A stretch of DNA of 26,274 nt, from UHGV virus genome UHGV-0174150, one strand, 5' to 3'. Source of the stretch: a virus. The notes under the pieces were generated by a model. It did not search any database, was not told where the DNA came from, and was given only the letters and a program-made list of their open reading frames with translations. Both the position numbers and the translations under genes were made by a program. This document shows, one piece after another, positions 1 to 25,964 of this stretch (position 1 is its first letter; each line of letters begins with the position of its first letter).

Positions 1-396
1 TTTCCTGAGAAAAGCGAAACAATTGAGCAGTATCTTGTAAAGGAACTTCATGGTGTTGATTTTGGATGGACGCCAATACAGTCCATACAAGAGTCTGTAT
101 ATCAGACATGTGTTGAGCCACTGATCTCTAATGGATTTATGGTTTCACGTATACATAAGATGAATGGTCAGCTAGGTTTTCCGCCAGATATGATTCCTAA
201 TGGTTTACTGCCGCTGCCGAGATTTAGTAATACAGAACATCGTATGCACGCAATAATTGATACAGATCATTATGTTGAAGGCAACATGTCAACTGATTTG
301 CAGTTAATTGAAAAACAGATTCTTTCGTTGCATAGTAAAGTTAAAGAAGCATTTGAAGGCATGGTTTCAGATTTTGCGCGTGCTATTTGGTACTGA
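1..396 (+). CDS. hypothetical protein, C-terminal part; 5' end outside window
   Basis: Frame 1 is open from nt 1 to TGA at 394-396; the ORF track reports only the 139-396 part from an internal ATG. AT-rich like the two downstream ORFs. No motif recognised. Confidence 0.45.
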   Translation, partial: FPEKSETIEQYLVKELHGVDFGWTPIQSIQESVYQTCVEPLISNGFMVSRIHKMNGQLGFPPDMIPNGLLPLPRFSNTEHRMHAIIDTDHYVEGNMSTDLQLIEKQILSLHSKVKEAFEGMVSDFARAIWY

Positions 397-415: not shown

Positions 416-1078
416 ATGTATGCAATTCCTACTGGAAGCATAGGCTCTGTAGATCGGTATACTCCAGATTCGCAGTCAAGCTCATGTGTATCAGGTGTTG
501 TTGCTGTCGCCGCATCTTTACTATTAGTTGGTACGGGGGCTTCATACCCTGTAAATGCTTATAAGCAATGGCGTCAGTATGTTCAGCCAAGGGTTCAGTT
601 TGCATTTGATTCCATAGAGTCAACGTACACGCCTGCAATTTCTCCTGAGGTTGATGTCAGGAATGTTGCCCAACATTTGGCTAATATTCGAGAAGTGCTG
701 TCTCCATCAATGTCAGAACTGGCTAAGGATTTGGGGATAACTCGGCAGGCTCTCTATAAATGGTTGTCAGGGGAGAACCAGCCTGATGATGCTTCAAAAG
801 TCCAATTCATTACCAACCTCAGTAATGTTGCTGACTCTTTTTCCAAAGCTGGACTCAATGATGCGAAGCTATTGGTGAAAATGAAAGCATTCAATGGTAG
901 GTCATTGATGGACTTAATAAAAGAAGGTGAGGATTGGAACAAGCCAGTTCAGGTACTGATTGATGAAGCTAAAGCGATGAATGCAGCTGCTGAATCGACC
1001 AATTACTTAGCAAGCAAGGCGAAACCGACAGATGATTGGAAGTCATCTATTTCAATTCCTAGAACAGTAGAGGAATAA
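416..1078 (+). CDS. hypothetical protein with XRE/Cro-type helix-turn-helix motif
   Basis: ATG at 416 with GGGGGTGA Shine-Dalgarno at 403-410, 20 nt after the upstream stop. Segment SMSELAKDLGITRQALYKWLSGENQP looks like an HTH_3 motif. Gly/Ala-rich hydrophobic stretch near the N-terminus. AT-rich. Confidence 0.55.
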   Translation: MYAIPTGSIGSVDRYTPDSQSSSCVSGVVAVAASLLLVGTGASYPVNAYKQWRQYVQPRVQFAFDSIESTYTPAISPEVDVRNVAQHLANIREVLSPSMSELAKDLGITRQALYKWLSGENQPDDASKVQFITNLSNVADSFSKAGLNDAKLLVKMKAFNGRSLMDLIKEGEDWNKPVQVLIDEAKAMNAAAESTNYLASKAKPTDDWKSSISIPRTVEE

Positions 1079-1087
1079 ATCACATTT

Positions 1088-1936
1088 ATGTTGGTACGAG
1101 GAACATCATGGCGTCAGGGGCATGTTCTTAAACATGATGATGCCGTTTCACTTGGACTTCTGAAGCCTGATGAAACGAACCATAAAGTTGTAGTTATAAC
1201 GCATGATTGTGATTTACAGAGTAATTCTGAAAAAAACGTGGAACTGATGTTTGGCCCCTTGAAAAAGGGGTCAAGCAAGATGAAAAGAGCTAAGCATCCG
1301 AGAATCCTCGATCTATGCTTTGAAAACCCAGAAAGTGCTAAGAAGAACGCAGTAGAGCTTCGGCATGAAAGAAAAGTCATCATTTCTAAAGAAGCTTTCC
1401 GTTGTGAGGAAAACGATCCGGCATTCTCCATTAGCACAGAAGAGAAACAAGCTCTTAAGCAATGGTTAGCAGCTAAGTATGGTCGTCCAGCGTTTCCTAA
1501 CTCGTTTGAAGAGCGCTTGCGGGCTTACGACGAGGATAAAAAGTTTATTTTCGAAAAAGAAGTTGCGGACATTATCGCCACAAACGCAGAGCATTTGATC
1601 GGAGTTTTTTTCGATTTGGGCGAAGAAAGATTTAACGATCTTGAGGAAGGCATACCATATGAGCTTTCTATCAATGTTGTTTATGATGCAACTGAAGGTG
1701 GCCCCGATGCCAGAGGGGCGGCTGAACAAACCTGTTCTGATCTAAAGGCATTGTTTTATAAGTTTTATGGTGATCCAATCTTGGGACATTCAGAGCTTAT
1801 AGAATTGAATACGTGCATTGCTGTTGCCGATACTCATTTCTCCCTGTATGCATTGAGGCGGATGGATCAATGGAGGGTGGAATACATCAGCCTTGAAGAA
1901 GATTCATATGGCGATTTCATTGGTGCCGGTGTTTAA
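1088..1936 (+). CDS. hypothetical protein (282 aa), possible effector partner of the HTH protein
   Basis: ATG at 1088 with GAGGAA about 12 nt upstream, 9 nt after the previous stop (operon-like spacing). AT-rich. No Walker A, HEPN or PD-(D/E)xK motif recognisable by eye. Stop codon lies inside the 1930-1965 palindrome. Confidence 0.6.
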   Translation: MLVRGTSWRQGHVLKHDDAVSLGLLKPDETNHKVVVITHDCDLQSNSEKNVELMFGPLKKGSSKMKRAKHPRILDLCFENPESAKKNAVELRHERKVIISKEAFRCEENDPAFSISTEEKQALKQWLAAKYGRPAFPNSFEERLRAYDEDKKFIFEKEVADIIATNAEHLIGVFFDLGEERFNDLEEGIPYELSINVVYDATEGGPDARGAAEQTCSDLKALFYKFYGDPILGHSELIELNTCIAVADTHFSLYALRRMDQWRVEYISLEEDSYGDFIGAGV

Positions 1937-1965
1937 ACTGGCTGTTTCGACAGCCAGTTTAAACA
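1930..1965. terminator. perfect 16-bp-stem hairpin with TTCG loop between convergent cargo ORF and Q; putative bidirectional terminator or boundary element
   Basis: GTTTAAACTGGCTGT-TTCG-ACAGCCAGTTTAAAC read directly; sits between the stop of the 1088-1936 ORF and the stop of Q at 1974-1976. No U-tract on either side, so terminator function is inferred only from position. Confidence 0.4.
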
Positions 1966-1973
1966 GGCTTTAA

Positions 1974-3008
1974 TCAAGCATCGCCTAATTTATATTCGTC
2001 AAAACGAATAATTTCGTCATTAAGCCATTCATTTAATTCCATTAATCTTTTTTGAAGTGGAATCAATTCATTACGAACGAATACTCGACTAGCTTTTTCC
2101 ACGTCTCCAAACCCACCAACGTTGCTCGGCATAATTCCCATCATCTGCGGTGGCACGCGGTGCGCTGCCATCATGTCATCGCGGCTAACGTTCTTGATGT
2201 TAAGAAACTCGTCTTTCGCCGCAACCTCTGATAACGGGATGATCTGGATGCCGTCCTTTTTGCCGTTGGGCGAATACATAAACAGGTTGCGGAAGTTACC
2301 CGGTCCTTTGGCGCTTTTCATTGCCTGACGGATATTGTTCACATCCTCCTGGTTCTGTGCTGCGTCGGTCATGTACATAATGAAACCTGCGTGGCTGCCG
2401 TTGATGTAATACTTCCGGCGAAACAGCGTTGCGGACTCGTTGAGCAGGGTTGACGGGATGGCGGAGAGATAGCCTGGCAGCCCGTAAATCTCCTGGTTAA
2501 TATCCGGCTCCAGCAGATGAAAGATGCTGCCCTGCGTAAATTCATAGGGCTGCGTGGTCATGCCATACTGCACAAACCAGTAGGTATCCAGGTCTAATCC
2601 ACGTCGGGTGTATTTTGCCAGGGCAGGCTCAAGGGCGATAACTTCACCGAATCGGTTCGTGCGTTTCTCCAGGTAGGCGTTACCAAATACCAGATAGTCC
2701 TGCACAAAACGCGAAAAAGCCTGCTGGCTGAGCAGCGGATGAGGGATATAGGTACTGGTCAGAATGTTGCACTTTACTGCAATCGGGGAACTGTGATGCA
2801 CGGCGGCGCGGAAGGTGCGCGCCAGTCCGTCAAAGCTGACGGGCGGCTCATACCAACGGTCCATCTGTACGCATTCCACATAGTCCAGCAGTTCACGGCG
2901 GTCCAGAACAGGAACGGGATCGCCGAAGCTGAATGCTTCGGCTGTAGTTTGACTTTTAAGCTGGATCTGTTTCGTCGCCGCAGCTCGGTTCTTCTTACTC
3001 TTTCCCAT
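1974..3008 (-). CDS. Q: portal protein (P2 Q-like)
   Basis: 344-aa ORF whose position and length match P2 gpQ. Start ATG overlaps the P stop (ATGA coupling); the ORF track extends 1 codon further to a TTG. Confidence 0.9.
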   Translation of the reverse strand: MGKSKKNRAAATKQIQLKSQTTAEAFSFGDPVPVLDRRELLDYVECVQMDRWYEPPVSFDGLARTFRAAVHHSSPIAVKCNILTSTYIPHPLLSQQAFSRFVQDYLVFGNAYLEKRTNRFGEVIALEPALAKYTRRGLDLDTYWFVQYGMTTQPYEFTQGSIFHLLEPDINQEIYGLPGYLSAIPSTLLNESATLFRRKYYINGSHAGFIMYMTDAAQNQEDVNNIRQAMKSAKGPGNFRNLFMYSPNGKKDGIQIIPLSEVAAKDEFLNIKNVSRDDMMAAHRVPPQMMGIMPSNVGGFGDVEKASRVFVRNELIPLQKRLMELNEWLNDEIIRFDEYKLGDA

Positions 3009-4774
3009 CAAAAAATCTCCACAATATTGCTGGTATTGGCGGATTCGCCCTGCAGCGGTTCGTTAAACAGTGCGTGCATCGTTGCCCATGCCAGATCGGC
3101 GTGGCTGGCTTCTTCGCTGCGGCTGGCTTCATAGGTCGGGCGGTTGCCACTGGCGGTGGTGGTGCGACGGATTGCCATAAATGACTGCGCAATGTCGGTA
3201 TGTCCGGCGTCAAACTCCAGACGGCGGTGGCTGATAATGTCGTAGGCCTTGAGTACCAGGGCGTTTTTAACGTTGGGGTTGTAGACAAACTCCCGGACGG
3301 CAGGAAAGAACGCTTTCACGTTCTCGTAAACCCCGTGACCAACGCCGGTTGAGTCGATGCCGATGTAGGTCACGTTGTACTGCTCGGTCAGTTTTTTGAT
3401 TGCGTCAGCCTGGGCGCGGAAGTCCATCCCGCGCCACTGGTGACGCTCAAGAATGCGAAACTTACCGCCCGGCACGGCTGGCGGTGCCACCACCACGCAT
3501 CCGGCGCTGTCGCCGTTCTGCGTACCTTTTGCCGGGTCATAACCGATCCACACTTCGCGCCAGCCAAACGGGCGCAGGGCCAGAGCATGAAAGTCGGTCC
3601 AGACTTCCCAGCTGTCCACCATGCACGCCTGCAGCTCGCTGAGCGGGAACACGGACGCGAGATCGTCCACGAACTCGCACATCAGCAGGTTCTGGTATTC
3701 GTCCGGGCTGTACTCCATGCGCAACTGGTCAAGGTCGAACAGGTTACAGCCGCCGCGCACCGCATCTTCCACGGTGACTATCTGGCGGTATTGCCCGTCT
3801 GCGCACAGCAGGCCGGGGGCCAGATTGCTATGGGACAGGTCGATGTCCACCTTGTCGGCTTTGTTGCGTCCACGGTTGAACAGTGCACCGGACCAGAACG
3901 GATAAGCACTGTGGGTCAGGCTGGATGGCGTGGAAAAATAGGTTTGTCGCCATTTTTTGTGAATAGCCATACCGGAAGCCACTTTGCGCAGCTCCTGGAA
4001 TTTCGGTATCCAGAAATATTCATCCAGATACAGGTTGCCGTGGTAACTCTGGGTCGTGCCGCCAATGGTCTCGAGGAAGTATAGAGTGGCCCCCTAGGGA
4101 AGCTACATCGGTGCGCCTTTCAGCTCCACCTCCACTTCTTTGGCGAAGTCGATGATGTACTGTTTAAAGACGTGGGCCTGTGCCTTACTGGCGGAAAGGA
4201 AAATCTGGTTACGTCCGGTAAGCAGGGCGTCAATCAGGGCTTCACGGGCAAAGTAAAAGGTCGCGCCGATCTGGCGTGACTTCAGCAGGTTGCGGATGCG
4301 GTTGGCTTTTCCGGCTTCCCTCCAGTGGCGCTGGTAGTTGAACATGGAGGAATGGAAGATTTCTTCCAGCTTCTCAATCTGCTCATCGGTGAAAACATTC
4401 TTTTCCGGCTGACGGCGCGGGCCTTTGTTGCGGTTGGCGACGTTAGGGTTTAAGTCGGCTTCGTTGCCGCCATTGTTAAACTTGCTGATCCGCGCGTGGC
4501 GCTCCGACTGGCGCGCCAGCAGGTCAATCTCTTTGAAATCTTTCCCTTCTTTGTGCTCCTTCATAATGAGCTGGCAGTAGCGTGCGGCGGTGGTGAGCTG
4601 CATCTGATCCAGCGGCCCATAGTCACCCCACTTGTCGCGTTTTTTCCAGCTGTGAACGGTTGCAACTTTCTCGCCCAGCATTTCAGCAATGCGGGCTACG
4701 CGGTATCCCTGAAAGTACAGCAGCATGGCCTGCCGACGGGGATCGAGATCTGCGGGTGTCAGTGTGGTGTTCAT
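3008..4774 (-). pseudogene. P: terminase large subunit (P2 P-like), single frame interrupted by two in-frame TAG codons at 4103-4105 and 4094-4096
   Basis: ORFs 4103-4774 (N-terminal part) and 3008-3982 (C-terminal part) are in the same frame. Reading through gives ...KGAPM*LP*GATLYFLETIGG... with no other stop; total 589 codons, about P2 gpP size. Neighbouring residues align to P2 P as recalled from memory. Confidence 0.85.
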
Positions 4775-4916: not shown

Positions 4917-5750
4917 ATGACAGTGAAAGCAAAGCGTTTTCGCATCGGGGTGGAAGGTGCCACCACCGACGGACGCGAAATCCAGCGTGAATGGCTGGAA
5001 CAGATGGCAGCCAGCTACAACCCGGCGGTGTATACCGCGCTGATTAACCTTGAGCACATCAAGTCTTATCTACCGGACAGCACCTTTAACCGCTACGGCA
5101 AGGTGACGGCGCTGTTTGCTGAAGAAATCACGGAAGGTCCGCTGGCAGGCAAGATGGCGCTGTATGCCGACGTTGAGCCAACGGAGTCCCTGGTGGAACT
5201 GGTGAAAAAAGGCCAGAAATTATTCACCTCTATGGAAGTCAGCCCGAAGTTCGCTGATACGGGCAAAGCCTACCTGGTCGGCCTGGCTGCCACTGATGAC
5301 CCTGCCAGTCTGGGTACGGAAATGCTGACATTCAGCGCCAGTGCAGCCCATAACCCGCTGGCAAACCGCAAGCAGAATCCTGCCAATCTCTTTACCGCTG
5401 CAGAGGAAACGGTGATCGAACTGGAAGAAATCCAGGACGACAAACCGTCCCTGTTTGCCCGCGTCACGGCGCTGTTTACCAAAAAAGAGCAGTCCGATGA
5501 CGCCCGGTTCTCTGATGTGCATAAGGCCGTGGAGCTGGTCGCCACTGAGCAGCAGAACCTGAACGCACGCACCGAAAAATCCCTGTCTGAGCAGGAAGAA
5601 CGCCTGTCTGAGCTGGAGACTGCCCTGCAGGCACAGCAAACCGCCTTTAACGAACTGGTGGACAAGCTGAGTCATGAAGACAGCCGCCAGGACTACCGCC
5701 AGCGTGCAACAGGCGGTAACGCCCCCGCTGACACTCTGACCAATTGCTGA
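4917..5750 (+). CDS. O: capsid scaffolding protein (P2 O-like)
   Basis: 277 aa; synteny; similar to P2 gpO, including motifs FRIGVEG and YLVGLAATDDPASLGTE (from memory). Confidence 0.9.
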   Translation: MTVKAKRFRIGVEGATTDGREIQREWLEQMAASYNPAVYTALINLEHIKSYLPDSTFNRYGKVTALFAEEITEGPLAGKMALYADVEPTESLVELVKKGQKLFTSMEVSPKFADTGKAYLVGLAATDDPASLGTEMLTFSASAAHNPLANRKQNPANLFTAAEETVIELEEIQDDKPSLFARVTALFTKKEQSDDARFSDVHKAVELVATEQQNLNARTEKSLSEQEERLSELETALQAQQTAFNELVDKLSHEDSRQDYRQRATGGNAPADTLTNC

Positions 5751-12622: not shown

Positions 12623-13220
12623 TCTGCTGCCACCGGGTTCAACTTCACTGGAGCGCCGACTGGCGCAAACCTGCAGCGGGATTTCTGATCTGCAGGTGCC
12701 GCTTCGTGACTTGTGGAATCCGGCAACCTGTCCGGTCAGTTTCCTGCCTTATCTCGCCTGGGCGTTCTCTGTGGATCGCTGGGACGAGGGCTGGACAGAA
12801 AGCGTCAAACGCCAGGTAGTGAAGGATGCTTTTTATATTCATCAGCACAAAGGAACCACCAGTGCCGTACGGCGGGTGGTGGAGCCGTTCGGCTTCCTGA
12901 TCCGCATTATTGAGTGGTGGCAGACCGGAGAAACACCGGGCACGTTTCGCCTGGATATCGGCGTGCAGGACCAGGGCATCACTGAAGATACCTATCTGGA
13001 ACTTGAGCGGCTGATAAGCGATGCCAAACCATGTAGCCGTCACATGATCGGCATGTCCATCAATCTGCAGACCAGCGGTCCGCATTGGGTGGGGGCCGCC
13101 AGCTATCTTGGCGAAGAAATCACGATCTATCCGTATATCAACGAAACAATTATTTCCGGCGGCACCGCGCATGAAGGCGGGGCGGTCCATGTTATTGACA
13201 CAATGAGAGTGAATCCATGA
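12615..13220 (+). CDS. I: baseplate protein (P2 I-like)
   Basis: 201 aa; synteny between J and H. Confidence 0.8.
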   Translation: MNSLLPPGSTSLERRLAQTCSGISDLQVPLRDLWNPATCPVSFLPYLAWAFSVDRWDEGWTESVKRQVVKDAFYIHQHKGTTSAVRRVVEPFGFLIRIIEWWQTGETPGTFRLDIGVQDQGITEDTYLELERLISDAKPCSRHMIGMSINLQTSGPHWVGAASYLGEEITIYPYINETIISGGTAHEGGAVHVIDTMRVNP

Positions 13221-15580
13221 GCACAAAATTTTATACCCTGCTGACGGATATTGGCGCGGCGAAACTTGCCAGCGCCGCCGCGATCGGTGTGCCGCTAAAA
13301 ATTACCCATATGGCGGTGGGCGATGGCGGCGGAGCATTGCCGACGCCGGACGCAAAGCAGACGGCACTGGTAAATGAGAAACGCCGGGCTGCGCTGAATA
13401 TGCTCTATATCGACCCGCAGAACAGCAGCCAGATTATTGCTGAACAGGTGATCCCTGAAAATGAGGGTGGTTGGTGGATACGTGAAGTGGGTCTGTTTGA
13501 TGAGTCCGGGGCATTGATTGCCGTGGGCAACTGCCCGGAAAGCTATAAGCCGCAACTGGCTGAAGGCAGCGGGCGTACCCAGACCGTGCGCATGGTGCTG
13601 ATTACCAGCAGCACGGACAATATCACCCTGAAAATCGACCCTGCTGTAGTGCTGGCAACCCGCAAGTATGTGGATGACAAGGCACTGGAGCTGAAGGTGT
13701 ACGTGGATGACCTGATGGCAAAACATCTTGCCGCGCCGGACCCGCATTCACAGTATGCACCCAAAGAAAGTCCAACGTTTACCGGAACCCCCAAAGCGCC
13801 AACGCCAGCGGCGGGGAATAATACCACGCAGCTTGCGACCACCGCGTTTGTACAGGCGGCACTGACGGCCCTTATTAATGGTGCGCCAGCCACGCTGGAC
13901 ACGCTGAAAGAAATAGCCGCAGCCATTAACAATGATCCGAATTTCAGTACCACCATTAACAATGTGCTGGCACTAAAAGCACCGTTGTCGAGTCCGGCAC
14001 TCACCGGAACGCCAACAGCCCCCACGGCGGCACAGTCGGTCAACAATACACAGATTGCCACTACGGCTTTTGTGAAATCGGCGATTGCGGCAATGGTGGG
14101 TTCTGCACCTGCGGCACTGGATACACTGAACGAACTGGCGGCGGCGCTGGGGAATGACCCGAACTTTGCCACGACAATGCTTAATGCACTGGCAGGTAAA
14201 CAACCGCTGGACAATACGCTGACTAATTTGAGTGGAAAGGATGTAGCTGGTCTTCTCGCATACCTTGGTATTTCAGCGCCAGGCGGCGCAGGGTCAGTTG
14301 GATATAAATTAAATGCAGAGAATACAGTCTCACGAACTGCATACGATAATTTTTCTGACCGAATTAATGCCGGAGACTTTGGTATTAAGGGTGATGGGAT
14401 AGCTGATAATGCTGCTGCGATAACCAAGGCATGTGCTGCATTGCAGAAACTGTACGAAATTGATGGAATCCGTCGCACATTGGTATTTACAGATGGGTCA
14501 TATCGCACATCGGCCACAATTGTTGTTCATGCAAATATGCTTATTCATTGCGAGGGGGGGGTTGTATTCCAGAATATCGGGGCAGTAAAAACCTTTGCAG
14601 CGGTGGAGCTTCAGGGCGGATCCAAGAAAAGCGTACTCGGCACTATGGACGGGTACGGTAGCGCCATCCTCATCAGGGGTAGCACTCATACTGTCGAATT
14701 TCAGACAATCAGTAACTGCGTAGATGGGGTGATTTTCAGGGCTGACAACAACTGGGCATCCACGAAAAGCAGCCTGGATAATGTGGTTCGTGGTGTTCAA
14801 ATTGGCAAATGTACTAACGCTATCGTGTTTGAGCAGAACGCTAATAATCTTGTGCAACAGGGCAATGAAGTTCGTGTCAACTTTGTGTCTGAAACCCCTA
14901 ACACACTGCTTTTCAGAAACTTCGATGGATTTGTCCACACAGAGGAATCTAACTGGGATAGTAACTTCGTAGAGCTGATAGCGAGTGACCCAATAACGCT
15001 GCCAGATTCATCTATGGCTAGGAACTCTACCCCCCATAGCGTATCAAACCTGACAATGGCGGTTAAATCATGGTGCGGAGGTTGGGTGCCCGATGCAGGC
15101 TCCATGTGCCTGATTAGAGGTGCGTTCAGTACCAGTACGTTCGAGTTCAATCTGGCCCAACGAGTAGGCTTAAACGAGGTTGTGGATGCCGTCGGCGTTA
15201 ATTCATTTGGTTCGTGTATTTTACGAAATACTCGTTATGAGAATTTAGGTAATTCAATATCTTATATCGGCGTTACTACTGGCGCTGAGTTCAATAGTGG
15301 TTTAGCCCTTTTCCGTAGTAAGTTCCGAGTCAGATTTACCGTGGTACCTCTGGCCGCAGGCCAAACGTACGGACTGTCTTTTAAGCATGTGCTGAGCCAG
15401 CGCTCAAATACAGGCAGGATGCGGATCGTACAATACTCGGATACAGCCAGGGGCAAGCTCTTGATTGAGGTTCGTGATGCGGGTACTGAGACGCAGGGCC
15501 TGGTGCGGGTGTGGTTCACAAATTTAACTCAGACAACTACGTCCACAATGGACGTAGAAATTATTTTTGAAGCTGAATAA
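13217..15580 (+). CDS. H: tail fibre / tailspike, mosaic: P2 H-like N-terminal half joined to an AT-rich C-terminal module with a pectate-lyase-superfamily-like motif
   Basis: N-terminal roughly 335 aa match P2 gpH including the NSPALTGTP...NDPNFATTM...AGKQP repeat region. After about nt 14220 composition turns AT-rich and the protein carries DFGIKGDGIADNAAAI, like the start of beta-helix depolymerase tailspikes. Confidence 0.85.
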   Translation: MSTKFYTLLTDIGAAKLASAAAIGVPLKITHMAVGDGGGALPTPDAKQTALVNEKRRAALNMLYIDPQNSSQIIAEQVIPENEGGWWIREVGLFDESGALIAVGNCPESYKPQLAEGSGRTQTVRMVLITSSTDNITLKIDPAVVLATRKYVDDKALELKVYVDDLMAKHLAAPDPHSQYAPKESPTFTGTPKAPTPAAGNNTTQLATTAFVQAALTALINGAPATLDTLKEIAAAINNDPNFSTTINNVLALKAPLSSPALTGTPTAPTAAQSVNNTQIATTAFVKSAIAAMVGSAPAALDTLNELAAALGNDPNFATTMLNALAGKQPLDNTLTNLSGKDVAGLLAYLGISAPGGAGSVGYKLNAENTVSRTAYDNFSDRINAGDFGIKGDGIADNAAAITKACAALQKLYEIDGIRRTLVFTDGSYRTSATIVVHANMLIHCEGGVVFQNIGAVKTFAAVELQGGSKKSVLGTMDGYGSAILIRGSTHTVEFQTISNCVDGVIFRADNNWASTKSSLDNVVRGVQIGKCTNAIVFEQNANNLVQQGNEVRVNFVSETPNTLLFRNFDGFVHTEESNWDSNFVELIASDPITLPDSSMARNSTPHSVSNLTMAVKSWCGGWVPDAGSMCLIRGAFSTSTFEFNLAQRVGLNEVVDAVGVNSFGSCILRNTRYENLGNSISYIGVTTGAEFNSGLALFRSKFRVRFTVVPLAAGQTYGLSFKHVLSQRSNTGRMRIVQYSDTARGKLLIEVRDAGTETQGLVRVWFTNLTQTTTSTMDVEIIFEAE
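13769..14215 (+). repeat. two tandem ~74-codon tail-fibre repeat units inside H
   Basis: SPTFTGTPKAPT...NDPNFSTTINNVLALKAPL directly followed by SPALTGTPTAPT...NDPNFATTMLNALAGKQPL; unit boundaries approximate. Confidence 0.55.
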
Positions 15581-15589
15581 GGGTCACCA

Positions 15590-15817
15590 ATGACACTGGA
15601 AGAATTAAAAGCCGACAAAGCTGAAACACTGGCAAAAGCGAATGCATTGACATCATACATTCAGTCAGATGATTTTCATCTGGCTGGGCATAGCCCAGCT
15701 GAGCAGCATTACATGAAAAAGCGGGAGGCGGCATTGCTGGAATATCATATGCAACTGACCCACCAAATCGCAGTGATTGAAAACCCATCCGGCGTGCCAC
15801 TCACTCTCACTGAATAA
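15590..15817 (+). CDS. hypothetical small protein (75 aa) at the position of the P2 tail-fibre assembly gene G; possibly a chaperone remnant
   Basis: Starts 9 nt after the H stop; AT-rich; much shorter than P2 G (about 175 aa); only vague resemblance to Tfa C-termini. Confidence 0.4.
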   Translation: MTLEELKADKAETLAKANALTSYIQSDDFHLAGHSPAEQHYMKKREAALLEYHMQLTHQIAVIENPSGVPLTLTE

Positions 15818-15863
15818 TGTGCGAACATTCGACCATTAATGGAACCTAACGGAGAAGTTTAAC

Positions 15864-16163
15864 GTGGATATATCCCCATTTCTTCATACTTGTGCCGCTG
15901 TACTTATCCAAGCGTTTTTTGGTTACTTTTTTGGTAGGTGGGGGTATGGCGGCATTATTGGCTGCGTGTGGTTTATTGCTCGTGAACAAACGCAGGCTGA
16001 ATATCGATGGATAGCCGAGTTCGGCCACGGAAAGCGGATCAACATGCCGTGGTGGGGAGGTTTCGATATCAGGGTGTGGAATGTTGGAAGCATGCTTGAT
16101 TTCCTGGTGCCGGTAATAGTCTGTTCCCTGGTGTATGCCTGCGTGGTGTATCGGCAGGCATAG
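15864..16163 (+). CDS. hypothetical Trp/Gly-rich small membrane protein (99 aa)
   Basis: GTG start with GGAGAAG 6 nt upstream; hydrophobic N- and C-terminal segments. A 126-codon antisense ORF (15846-16226) overlaps it fully and I judge that one less likely. Confidence 0.4.
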   Translation: MDISPFLHTCAAVLIQAFFGYFFGRWGYGGIIGCVWFIAREQTQAEYRWIAEFGHGKRINMPWWGGFDIRVWNVGSMLDFLVPVIVCSLVYACVVYRQA

Positions 16164-16247
16164 CGTCATGATAATCACCAATCGAACGTTTAAGAAAATG
16201 AAGAGATAACGGCTAACTGGCATCATTTCCGGTTTCTATTCAGGGGG

Positions 16248-16820
16248 ATGATCATGCTTATTGGATATGTACGCGTGTCAACAAATGACCAGAACACCGA
16301 TTTGCAACGCAATGCGCTGAACTGCGCGGGATGTGAGCGGATTTTTGAGGATAAAATCAGTGGCACTAAGTCCGACAGACCGGGGCTGAAAAAACTGCTC
16401 AGGACACTATCGGCAGGAGACACGCTGGTTGTCTGGAAGCTGGACAGGTTGGGGCGCAGTATGCGGCATCTTGTTACGCTGATAGAGGAGTTGCGCCAGC
16501 GTGGTGTGAATTTCCGAAGCCTGACTGACAGTATTGATACCAGTACCCCAATGGGCCGTTTCTTTTTTCATGTCATGGGTGCCCTGGCTGAAATGGAACG
16601 CGAACTGATAGTTGAACGTACCAGGGCAGGGCTGGCTGCAGCTCGTGCCAAAGGCAGAGTAGGTGGACGCCGTCCTAAGTTGACCACCGAACAGTGGGCA
16701 CAGATTGGGCGTTTACTCGAGGCCGGAGAATCAAGACAGCGTATTGCACTGATTTTTGATGTGGGTGTTTCCACAATTTATAGAAAATTTCCGGCAAATA
16801 AGAGTAATGAATCCCCCTGA
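16248..16820 (+). CDS. serine recombinase, Hin/Gin/Pin/Cin-family DNA invertase
   Basis: N-terminal LIGYVRVSTNDQ..DLQ catalytic motif, VVWKLDRLGRS, MGRFFFHVMGALAEMERELIVERT, and C-terminal HTH (GVSTIYRKF). Probable true start is the ATG at 16254 (MLIGY). Confidence 0.9.
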   Translation: MIMLIGYVRVSTNDQNTDLQRNALNCAGCERIFEDKISGTKSDRPGLKKLLRTLSAGDTLVVWKLDRLGRSMRHLVTLIEELRQRGVNFRSLTDSIDTSTPMGRFFFHVMGALAEMERELIVERTRAGLAAARAKGRVGGRRPKLTTEQWAQIGRLLEAGESRQRIALIFDVGVSTIYRKFPANKSNESP

Positions 16821-22155: not shown

Positions 22156-22637
22156 TGATGGTGCTGGGATTGTACGTGTTTATGCTGCGCACCGTTCCGT
22201 ATCAGGAACTGCAGTATCAACGCAGCTGGCGACATGCGGCAAACAGTCGGGTAAACCGACGTCCGTCCACGCAGTTTCTGGGACCGGAAAACGACATGCT
22301 GACGCTTTCCGGTGTTCTTATGCCGGAAATAACAGGCGGCAGGCTGTCGTTGCTGGCACTGGAGCAGATGGCAGAACAGGGGAAAGCATGGCCCCTGATT
22401 GAAGGCAGCGGCACGATTTACGGCATGTATGTGATTGAGGGACTGAATCAGACTAAAACGGAGTTTTTCCGCGACGGTATGCCGCGCCGGATTGAGTTCA
22501 CCCTGTCGCTAAAACGCGTGGATGAATCCCTGCCCGATATGTTCGGTGATCTCAGTGCGCAACTGAATAATCTGCAGGGAACGGCAACATCTGCCTTAAG
22601 CGATATCAGTAAAACGGTGGGAGGGCTGCTGTCGTGA
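22152..22637 (+). CDS. U: tail protein (P2 U-like)
   Basis: 161 aa; overlaps T stop (ATGA); synteny. Confidence 0.85.
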   Translation: MMMVLGLYVFMLRTVPYQELQYQRSWRHAANSRVNRRPSTQFLGPENDMLTLSGVLMPEITGGRLSLLALEQMAEQGKAWPLIEGSGTIYGMYVIEGLNQTKTEFFRDGMPRRIEFTLSLKRVDESLPDMFGDLSAQLNNLQGTATSALSDISKTVGGLLS

Positions 22638-23734
22638 ATTTCAGCTCTGAACTGCTTAACAAAGGCAACAAAACTCCGGCATTCAGCATCAGTATTGAAG
22701 GCAGGGATATCACCACTGTGCTGGACAACCGCCTGATGGGGCTGACGCTGACGGATAACCGGGGCTTTGAAGCGGACCAGCTTGATCTGGAGCTGGACGA
22801 CGCCGATGGAAAAATCGTGCTGCCGCGCCGTGGTGCGGTCATTACGCTGGCGCTGGGCTGGAAGGGGCAGCCGCTTTTCCCGAAAGGGGCATTCACGGTG
22901 GACGAGATTGAACACACTGGCGCACCGGACCGCCTGACTATCCGGGCGCGAAGTGCTGATTTTCGTGAAACGCTGAATACCCGTCGTGAAAAGACGTGGC
23001 ACAAGACCACCGTTGGGGAAGTGGTGAAGGAAATAGCTGCGCGGCACAAACTGAAGATGGCACTGGGTAAAGACCTGTCAGATAAACCCGTGGAACATAT
23101 AGACCAGACCAATGAGAGTGACGGCAGTTTTCTGATGCGGCTGGCGCGACAGTACGGTGCCATCGCGTCGGTGAAAAATGGCAATCTGTTATTCATCCGG
23201 CAGGGACAGGGCAAAAGCGCCAGCGGTAAACCTCTGCCGGTGATCACTATCACACGCAAGGACGGCGACAGTCACCGCTTTACCCTGGCAGATCGCGGAG
23301 CCTATACGGGCGTAATTGCCAGCTGGTTGCATACCCGCGAACCCGCGAAGAAAGAAAGCACTACGGTGAAGCGTAAGCGCAGGACTAAGAAGCAGAAGAA
23401 AGAGCCGGAAGCGAAGCAGGGCGATTACCTGGTGGGGACGGATGAAAACGTGCTGGTACTTAATCGCACTTATGCCAACCGGAGCAACGCCGAACGAGCG
23501 GCAAAAATGCAGTGGGAACGCCTGCAACGCGGCGTTGCGTCATTCTCGCTACAACTGGCGGAAGGGCGGGCAGATCTCTACACGGAAATGCCTGTGAAGG
23601 TCAGTGGTTTTAAACAGCCGATAGATGATGCGGAATGGACCATTACGACTCTGACACATACCGTCAGCCCGGATAACGGTTTTACGACCAGTCTGGAGCT
23701 TGAAGTGAAGATTGATGATTTCGAAATGGAATGA
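22634..23734 (+). CDS. D: tail protein / late control protein (P2 D-like)
   Basis: 366 aa; GTG start overlapping U stop; motifs LDDADGK, TWHKTT, HIDQTNESD match P2 gpD (from memory). Confidence 0.85.
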   Translation: MNFSSELLNKGNKTPAFSISIEGRDITTVLDNRLMGLTLTDNRGFEADQLDLELDDADGKIVLPRRGAVITLALGWKGQPLFPKGAFTVDEIEHTGAPDRLTIRARSADFRETLNTRREKTWHKTTVGEVVKEIAARHKLKMALGKDLSDKPVEHIDQTNESDGSFLMRLARQYGAIASVKNGNLLFIRQGQGKSASGKPLPVITITRKDGDSHRFTLADRGAYTGVIASWLHTREPAKKESTTVKRKRRTKKQKKEPEAKQGDYLVGTDENVLVLNRTYANRSNAERAAKMQWERLQRGVASFSLQLAEGRADLYTEMPVKVSGFKQPIDDAEWTITTLTHTVSPDNGFTTSLELEVKIDDFEME

Positions 23735-24278: not shown

Positions 24279-25964
24279 TTATCCTAATCCTGGCCATACC
24301 ATGACGATGATTGTCCCTGCCAGCGTCAGCAGGACGTTGGCGATTGCATAGGTGCCCGCATAGCCCAGCGCCGGGATGTTACTGCGAGCTGTATCACTGA
24401 TGATCTCCATTGCCGGCGCGCAGGTACGTGCGCCCATCATTGCGCCGAACAACAGCGCGCGGTTCATTCGCAATACATAAGCACCGAACAAGAAACAGAT
24501 AACCACGGGCACCAGACTGACAATCAATCCGGCAATCAACATCTGACCGCCAATCGCGCCCAGGCCGTTATTAATACCGCTACCGGCGCTCAGACCAACG
24601 CCTGCCATAAACACCATCAAGCCGAACTCTTTCACCATGCTTAATGCACCCTGCGGAATGTAACCGAAGGTCGGGTGGTTAGCACGCATAAAGCCCAGCA
24701 TAATTCCGGCGAATAACAACCCGGCAGCGTTCCCCATGCCGAAACTGAATGTGCTGAACTGGAAGGTGATCATCCCGATCATCAGCCCAATAACAAAGAA
24801 GGCGCAGAATGCCAGCAGGTCAGTGACCTGGCTGTGAATCGAGATAAAGCCGATGCGATCGGCGATGGTTTTTACGCGGCGGGCATCGCCGCTGACTTGT
24901 AAAACGTCACCTTTGTTAAGCACGACGTTGTCATCTATCGGCATCTCAATCTGGCTACGAATGACGCGGTTAAGGAAGCAACCGTGATCGGTCAACTTCA
25001 GTTGTGCGAGACGTTTACCTACAGCGTTATGGTTTTTAACGACCACTTCTTCAGTGACGATACGCATGTCGAGAAGGTCACGATCGAAAACTTCTTTACC
25101 GTTACGGAAGCTGGGATCGAGTCGGGCATGGGCGTCGGGATAGCCTACCAACGCTATTTCATCGCCCATTTGTAGCACGGCATCACCGTCTGGATTTGCC
25201 AGAATCCCGTTACGTCGAATACGTTCAATGTAGCAGCCGGTTTGTCGATAAATACCCAGTTCACGCAGATTTTTGCCGTCGGTCCAGGCCACCAGTTCCG
25301 GGCCGACGCGATAGGCGCGGATCACCGGTAAATAAACCTTACGGTTGGCATCAGTGTCCAGGCCACGTTCGCGGGCGATTTGCTGGGCGCTGGTCTGTAA
25401 GTCCTGATGCTGCAATTTCGGCAAGTAACGCGCACCAACAATCAAACTCACCAGACCGATTAAATAGGTTAAGGCATACCCGAGGCTCAGATTATCCAGT
25501 GCCAGTGAGAGCTGCCTGCTTTCCATGCCGGAATGACGCAGTGTATCGCCAGCACCGACCAGAACCGGTGTCGACGTCATAGAGCCTGCTAACATACCGG
25601 CCGTCAGGCCAATATCCCAGCCAAACAGCTTACCTAACCCTAAGGCGATCACCAGCGCACTGCTAACCATCACCAGTGCTAGCATTAGGTAATTTTTCCC
25701 ATCGCGAAAAAAAATGGAAAAAAAGTTCGGTCCGGCTTCGACCCCGACGCAGAAAATAAACAGCATAAAGCCAAGATTAAGCGCATCGGTGTTAATGCTG
25801 AAATCTTGTTGGCCTAATAACAGCGATACGACTAAAACGCCAATGGAATTACCCAGTTGGATCGAACCAAGTCGTAACTTTCCGAGACATAGCCCAAGCG
25901 CGAGGACCACAAATAATAACAGAATGTAATTCCCATTTAACAATTCGGCGACGTTTATATTCAC
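24279..25964 (-). CDS. ybjL: AAE-family putative transporter (YbjL/YidE-like), host chromosomal gene
   Basis: 561-aa multi-TMD protein with a central soluble region; I recognise it as enterobacterial YbjL from memory, not from a search. GC and codon usage host-like. Confidence 0.85.

Follow-up and report, generated by a model that had tools for sequence, protein, structure and literature searches.

A linked three-gene module with a predicted MazF/CcdB-like fold in the gpA–gpQ hotspot of a P2-like prophage

The cassette beside the portal gene

The virus genome UHGV-0174150, analysed here as one stretch of 26,274 nucleotides (the window), is a P2-like prophage with genes for the portal protein gpQ, terminase, scaffold, capsid, tail fibre and gpD. 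In the interval from the replication gene A/DinI-like gene to gpQ, it carries a cassette of three co-oriented genes (Table 1): T, encoding a TIGR04255 family protein and truncated by the start of the window; H, encoding a helix-turn-helix (HTH) protein; and E, encoding the 282-aa protein under study. The three genes form a real, widespread and uncharacterised module, which is a good candidate for experimental work rather than an established novelty. It is most likely a toxin-antitoxin (TA)-like or abortive-infection defence module. Two other loci are referred to below, a complete Escherichia coli locus (L001) and a locus of Serratia sp. L9 (L006).

Table 1. Positions of the cassette features and of other features in the window
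Feature	Position	Strand	Description	Basis
Gene T, 3′ part	1..396	+	First cassette gene, 131 codons, cut by window start; full length ~269 aa in related loci
Gene H	416..1078	+	220-aa XRE-type helix-turn-helix protein	Pfam HTH_3, phrog_8
Shine-Dalgarno-like element	1070..1074	+	GAGGA, 13 nt 5′ of E start codon, within the end of gene H	Read off sequence
Gene E	1088..1936	+	282-aa protein	ATG start, 282 codons
E residues 1–131	1088..1480	+	Predicted MazF/Kid/CcdB-like module; beta strands and helix 117–131	Predicted fold
E signature motif	1202..1213	+	H39-D40-C41-D42, codons CAT GAT TGT GAT	246-member alignment
E residues ~150–260	1535..1867	+	Acidic alpha/beta C-terminal domain, weak minimal-nucleotidyltransferase-like topology	Predicted
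E C-terminal tail	1865..1933	+	Conserved, D260-Q-W-R-x-E-Y-I-S268 onward, pLDDT <50	Alignment, model
Palindrome	1930..1965	.	Perfect, between convergent E and gpQ; 16-nt arms 1930–1945 and 1950–1965, 4-nt loop	100% complementary
gpQ gene	1974..3011	-	P2-type portal gene, right border of the hotspot	Pfam Phage_portal; RefSeq annotation in L001
Tail-fibre gene	13217..15580		Phage_tail_fib N-terminus
126-aa open reading frame	15846..16226		Strand opposite to tail-fibre gene
Serine resolvase/invertase gene	16248..16820		Resolvase and HTH_7 domains
gpD-like gene	22634..23734
Permease gene	24279..25964	-	561 aa, Asp-Al_Ex/TrkA_C

An earlier reading of the window from its letters (the sequence-only reading) had described E as an acidic protein without family-level motif, encoded by an AT-rich gene closely spaced to an HTH gene. 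This description holds, and the gene is part of a mobile, AT-rich cassette of the P2 gpA–gpQ hotspot, directly downstream of the HTH gene. The isoelectric point (pI) of the protein is 5.17, with 50 aspartate and glutamate residues versus 36 lysine and arginine residues. The acidity is uneven, being confined to the C-terminal half (pI 4.43, net charge -17); the other half is slightly basic (pI 8.83). The G+C content of the gene is 42.5% versus 54.4% in the remainder of the window. The stop codon of H (TAA, 1076–1078) is separated from the ATG of E by 9 nt, and this gap measures 3–20 nt in 77 of the 83 loci in which it was measured. H and E, adjacent, co-oriented and tightly spaced, could pass for a type II TA pair, but T is always present as a third gene and an antitoxin role of H is only putative. 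No match to E was found in Pfam (no family at an E-value ≤1), NCBIfam or PADLOC, and its sole PHROG match is phrog_34320 (E-value 5e-7), whose function is unknown.

The homologues of E are numerous. A word-indexed search gave 293 of them (cluster representatives at 90% identity) and a profile search gave 1,957 cluster representatives at 50% identity, 326 with an E-value ≤1e-30; among the matches listed at this last threshold, lengths are mostly 260–300 aa. The ratio of non-synonymous to synonymous substitution rates (dN/dS) between E and its orthologues is 0.05–0.10, and the family is under strong purifying selection. By these homologue numbers and this low dN/dS, E is far beyond a chance open reading frame.

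The H protein scores 23.6 bits with Pfam HTH_3 (cut-off 23) and matches phrog_8, annotated as “transcriptional regulator” (E-value 1.8e-14). In the alignment, a variable N-terminus leads to a hydrophobic stretch with a conserved GTGS, followed by the HTH at about residues 85–125, a helical region (LLKMKAFxGxSLxDLxKxG) and a C-terminal tail (SKAKPTxDWxSSISIPGS) whose conservation is striking and which by its sequence looks like a partner-binding peptide. The hydrophobic stretch has been called one transmembrane (TM) helix (Rousset et al. 2022, PMC9122126). Membrane anchoring of H is uncertain, however, because the N-terminal hydropathy exceeds the Kyte-Doolittle threshold in only 44 of 85 homologues. 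Faint matches, all below curated cut-offs, were obtained with TIGR02684 “addiction module antidote protein” (E-value 6.7e-5), with MbcA (PDB 6fkg, E-value 0.078) and, for one of 21 members, with Xre-like-HTH. In PADLOC, H gave just weak HTH-level matches to RmrA and mad1.

The full T gene occupies positions 5587–6396 of L001, where it encodes 269 aa, and 3500–4309 of L006. The full-length protein bears the RefSeq label TIGR04255 family protein, a named yet functionally uncharacterised family, and the 85-aa C-terminal open reading frame product alone is already above the curated NCBIfam cut-off for this family (41.5 bits versus 30). As a query against the word-indexed protein database, the partial T returned only four partial matches. 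Outside the window, in the Serratia locus, the 8-bp unit TAGTGAGA is repeated perfectly in tandem (7.1 copies, L006 3420–3476), some 25 bp 5′ of the T start codon. The E. coli locus lacks this array, which could be an operator-like element or a source of phase variation. Also upstream of T and outside the window (L006 3290–3330) is GGCGTGGCGGGGATACGAGCGCGCGC, which we take to be similar to a P2-type cos site; if so, the cassette lies between cos and gpQ in these phages.

Linkage and spread of the trio

Linkage of the three genes was followed in two scans. The first, seeded on E with one genome per species, gave 80 loci, to which five further loci were added. T, H and E are all present in the resulting 85 genome-derived loci (85/85), and they are adjacent in the order T-H-E in 83. 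The second scan, seeded on T in IMG/VR, gave 51 loci, 47 of which are not cut by a contig end, and the full trio is found in every one of these 47. An E member with only ~28–32% protein identity to the reference E proteins retains the three-gene set. T or E with different partners, an arrangement that would mark an effector slot, was found at none of the complete loci of both scans. The “two-gene hotspot system” of the sequence-only reading has thus to be replaced by an invariably linked trio of TIGR04255 protein, HTH protein and 282-aa protein. None of the three is ever found without the others, so that roles within the trio cannot be assigned by comparative genomics. Nor can the rule that the larger non-HTH partner is the effector, applied in that earlier reading, make the choice, because the 269-aa T protein is similar in size and more strongly conserved, and its predicted fold resembles that of an enzyme. 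E stands apart at only two of the 85 loci, both in Chlamydiae metagenome-assembled genomes (L058 and L085), where 2.3–4.3 kb of inserted DNA lies downstream of T-H.

The trio is found in Alpha-, Beta- and Gammaproteobacteria, Nitrospirae, Chloroflexota, Verrucomicrobia, Chlamydiae, Acidobacteria, Gemmatimonas, Omnitrophota and one actinobacterium. Flanking genes at different loci are unrelated to each other, and the 144 nearest neighbours span 105 Pfam families. The trio is found, for example, on a Komagataeibacter plasmid rich in TA pairs, in a Methylococcus island that also holds AbiE and at a chromosomal site in Shewanella. Among the neighbours, P2 portals, integrases, resolvases and transposases recur. 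Known defence models are matched by at least 14 of these 144 neighbours (~10%), namely type I methyltransferases (five), MADS mad2 (three), WYL (two), Hhe, PDC-S37, BrxA and a type IV restriction enzyme. From the varied hosts, the unrelated flanks and the strict linkage, it follows that the trio is a self-contained, horizontally mobile module, often located in defence or mobile-element neighbourhoods.

The distribution also bears on whether E could be a structural, morphogenetic or replication protein of the phage, the outcome that the sequence-only reading had named as fatal to its proposal. E adjoins the portal gene and is carried by 47 IMG/VR viral contigs, as would suit a phage protein. 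However, phrog_34320 belongs to no structural or replication category, and the trio is also located on a plasmid and, in Methylococcus, Shewanella and members of many other phyla, on chromosomal islands that are not phages. Moreover, cassette DNA is present (96–97% identity, always chromosomal, always beside a phage portal gene) in just 18 of 5,426 complete E. coli genomes, and therefore does not belong to the P2 core. Such a role for E is thus highly improbable, and E was not recognised as any known protein of this kind.

The gpA–gpQ interval is a hotspot of anti-phage systems, although about one quarter of P2 hotspots hold non-defence cargo such as partition systems and most of the P2 candidates tested gave no defence (Rousset et al. 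2022, PMC9122126). The exact cassette, with all three protein sequences, appears in Table S5B of the same study as P2-hotspot system 59, labelled “HTH_31”, together with the number 69 (apparently an occurrence count) and the note “1 TM in protein 2”; system 59 was outside the tested set (PMC9122126). A literature search for TIGR04255, the RefSeq accessions of the cassette and the PHROG identifiers found no paper mentioning them, although TIGR04255 does figure in one table of the DefensePredictor supplements. A 2026 survey of P2/P4 hotspots described the new systems Crouga, Bandua, Aernus, Toga, Reve and Hailong, all of other architecture than the cassette. In this survey, 6 of 8 randomly chosen P4 loci of unknown content were protective, and an antiviral function was predicted by machine learning for 15–32% of unknown P2 proteins.

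The non-defence cargo and the inactive candidates reported for P2 hotspots would be compatible with a trio that is not a conflict system and that provides a regulated accessory function (metabolic, stress-related or linked to lysogeny), E being then a non-toxic enzyme or binding protein. That the trio matches no known defence model points in the same direction. This explanation is nevertheless unlikely in view of the extreme cross-phylum mobility of a self-contained three-gene unit amid unrelated neighbours, its AT-rich foreign composition and its defence- and TA-rich neighbourhoods. The trio could also be a selfish addiction module, which would stabilise its carrier prophage, plasmid or island by post-segregational killing and have no direct anti-phage role. 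The many TA pairs around it on the Komagataeibacter plasmid, the adjoining integrases, resolvases and transposases, and an HTH-then-toxin layout combined with the MazF-like fold described below would all be in line with addiction. Its occupation of a defence-enriched P2 hotspot and the share of known defence genes among its nearest neighbours make addiction alone doubtful; addiction and anti-phage roles are, however, not mutually exclusive.

Predicted folds and proposed function

An AlphaFold2 model of E was built from a 33-sequence alignment. Its mean predicted local distance difference test score (pLDDT) is 80.5 and its predicted template modelling score (pTM) 0.55; residues ~10–125 are modelled with high confidence and the C-terminal domain with moderate confidence, and pLDDT drops under 50 in the conserved tail 262–282. 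According to this model, residues ~8–131 would adopt the fold of the MazF/CcdB toxins together with its C-terminal helix, as the predicted module shows the SH3-like barrel and the C-terminal helix typical of the MazF/PemK/CcdB superfamily. A PDB sequence-profile search with the E family alignment returned noise only (E-value ≥0.1). Alignment of the E family by hhalign with a small MazF/Kid/EndoA alignment gave a probability of 0.1%, so that the link with MazF is one of fold only. The sequence-only reading had looked to remote homology and structure for an identification of E: the sequence side of this check was negative, and the structure side was positive in the form of the predicted N-terminal fold.

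In a 246-member alignment, the E positions conserved in at least 93% of the sequences (most of them in 97–100%) are Q10, G11, H39-D40-C41-D42, E52, R72, W126, L127, Y131, R133, P137, C243, W262 and S268. Q10, H39-D40-C41-D42, E52 and R72 are kept in 245–246 of the 246 members. All universally conserved polar residues of the first half of the protein sit in the module of residues 1–131, and the H-D-C-D motif of the family is new. The “conserved acidic clusters” of the sequence-only reading are not the conserved core of E, whose invariant residues are Q10, H39-D40-C41-D42, E52, R72, R133 and C243; the acidic residues of the C-terminal domain are conserved only at 68–87%. The minimal nucleotidyltransferase signature (hG[GS] ... 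[DE]h[DE]h ... third carboxylate) was not found in E. The conserved C-terminal tail is a candidate partner-binding segment.

The AlphaFold model of T (pLDDT 89.5, pTM 0.87) shows a curved beta-sheet cradle, predicted to resemble the catalytic cradle of arginine/taurocyamine kinases, McsB and glutamine synthetase (GS)-type ligases. Invariant charged residues are carried by its strands (R129, R133, E144, E169, H221, D225, D227 and H228), and in the model they look like an active site. T is also the best conserved protein of the trio in most pairwise comparisons. These features would fit a defence or TA-like module in which T is the effector enzyme and E a sensor, adaptor or regulator, for instance a MazF-fold module that binds nucleic acid or peptide and gates T. 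Non-toxic MazF-fold proteins do exist, such as the MafI2 immunity protein. We regard this proposal as possible, if rather unlikely.

The reading that we prefer, with a probability of about 0.4, takes the trio for a conflict module with E as its effector. Four features speak for it: the trio occupies a hotspot and neighbourhoods rich in defence and TA genes, its operon is strict, the putative toxin gene follows the HTH gene, and the invariant residues lie within the toxin-fold module. T-H-E is an obligate operon that moves as one unit among prophages, plasmids and genomic islands, and its anti-phage activity is putative. E would arrest growth through its N-terminal MazF/CcdB-fold module, whose invariant residues are Q10, H39-D40-C41-D42, E52 and R72, and the target of this module would be essential to the cell and most probably RNA, as for MazF, Kid and ToxN. 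H would repress the operon and could restrain E, as an antitoxin does, through its conserved termini. T would be a third component, either enzymatic or sensing. Three observations weigh against an effector role of E: it has no sequence-level homology to MazF, its size and charge are atypical, and T, equally conserved and enzyme-like, is possibly the effector itself. The effector role put forward in the sequence-only reading gains real, if indirect, support from the predicted fold and loses the two-gene premise on which it was built.

A more elaborate scheme, which we hold to be quite improbable, would make the trio a new and very widespread tripartite immune or TA-like system. A guanidino-kinase/GS-like TIGR04255 enzyme would control an effector of a new class, with two domains and a MazF fold, by covalent modification or by turnover of a nucleotide or ligand, the H-D-C-D/E/R residues (with C243) would form an undescribed catalytic or metal centre, and the XRE protein, possibly membrane-anchored, would be the switch.

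The E family comprises ~2,000 clusters at 50% identity without Pfam domain, name or published function. The P2 gpA–gpQ interval is among the best-validated anti-phage hotspots, and cargo located there has often proved defensive once tested. The H39-D40-C41-D42/E52/R72 cluster offers direct targets for mutagenesis.

Other features of the window and comparison with known systems

The stop codon of E (1934–1936) is embedded in the palindrome that separates E from gpQ, as the sequence-only reading had noticed, and lies within its 5′ arm. As RNA, the palindrome folds at -29.2 kcal/mol (z = -5.25 versus shuffled sequences). It is not a canonical intrinsic terminator, because no U-tract lies beside it on either strand. 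It was also rejected as a part of the mobile cassette, because the enterobacterial P2-borne version (L001 and L006) is the only one with this exact sequence. In other lineages the stop codon is followed by different hairpins; 57 of 83 loci fold below -20 kcal/mol, and some have U-tracts. The palindrome is best read as the 3′ hairpin of the operon, a terminator or transcript stabiliser between two convergent genes, and it has no functional part in the story of the E protein. Further downstream, the stretch from the tail-fibre gene to the serine resolvase/invertase gene (13217–16820) is lower in G+C (47–50%) and is laid out in the way typical of Gin/Cin/Hin-type invertible switches of host range. 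Since the permease resembles a host gene, the end of the prophage or an attachment site is probably located at ~23.7–24.3 kb.

Among known defence systems, PADLOC-DB v2.0.0, including its PDC candidate models, gave no match for E or T from the window, from E. coli or from Methylococcus. Rst_3HP (hp+hp+hp; E. coli E1114) likewise consists of three genes without recognised domains in the same P2 hotspot (Rousset et al. 2022). The cassette is not this validated system, the proteins of Table S2A being unrelated to those of the trio by inspection, not by alignment, and the cassette being listed separately as system 59. The T protein shares its predicted beta-sheet cradle with guanidino kinases (phosphagen kinases and McsB) and GS-type ligases, but identity with them is 8–10% and T is devoid of the N-terminal domain of phosphagen kinases. 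Compared with HEPN-MNT and other minimal-nucleotidyltransferase TA systems, E has no G[GS]...DxD signature and the cassette no HEPN partner.

Within the TA systems, those with an Xre-type antitoxin (HigA-like, or Xre/MbcA/ParS with RES or ParT) likewise have an XRE-type HTH gene immediately upstream of the putative toxin gene. The cassette differs from them by its three genes, by an H protein of ~210 aa with an extra N-terminal hydrophobic/GTGS segment, and by an E protein unrelated to the RES, ParT and HigB toxins. A type III system of the ToxN kind was rejected, as no tandem repeats of an antitoxin RNA precede E and no Rfam match was found.

The closest comparison for E is with the MazF/PemK(Kid)/CcdB toxins and with the structurally similar type III toxins ToxN/CptN/AbiQ, with which it shares the predicted fold of residues ~8–131. 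No relationship to the MazF superfamily is detected at the sequence level with the Pfam PemK_toxin and CcdB profiles, hhalign or the PDB. E is a two-domain protein of 282 aa (family ~260–300 aa), whereas these toxins are single domains of ~100–120 aa, and its additional length is made up of an acidic alpha/beta domain and a tail that is conserved. To our knowledge, the signature H-D-C-D/E/R residues of E are not those of MazF (Arg/Thr) or of Kid. In contrast to MazEF, the upstream partner is an XRE HTH protein and not an AbrB-type MazE, and T is an obligatory third gene. Like the genes of MazF-type toxins, E is located directly downstream of a gene for a DNA-binding protein in a mobile operon, here on a prophage and within a defence hotspot. 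Should the MazF-fold reading prove right, this toxin superfamily would be extended to a two-domain, three-component architecture, and TIGR04255 would receive its first functional context.
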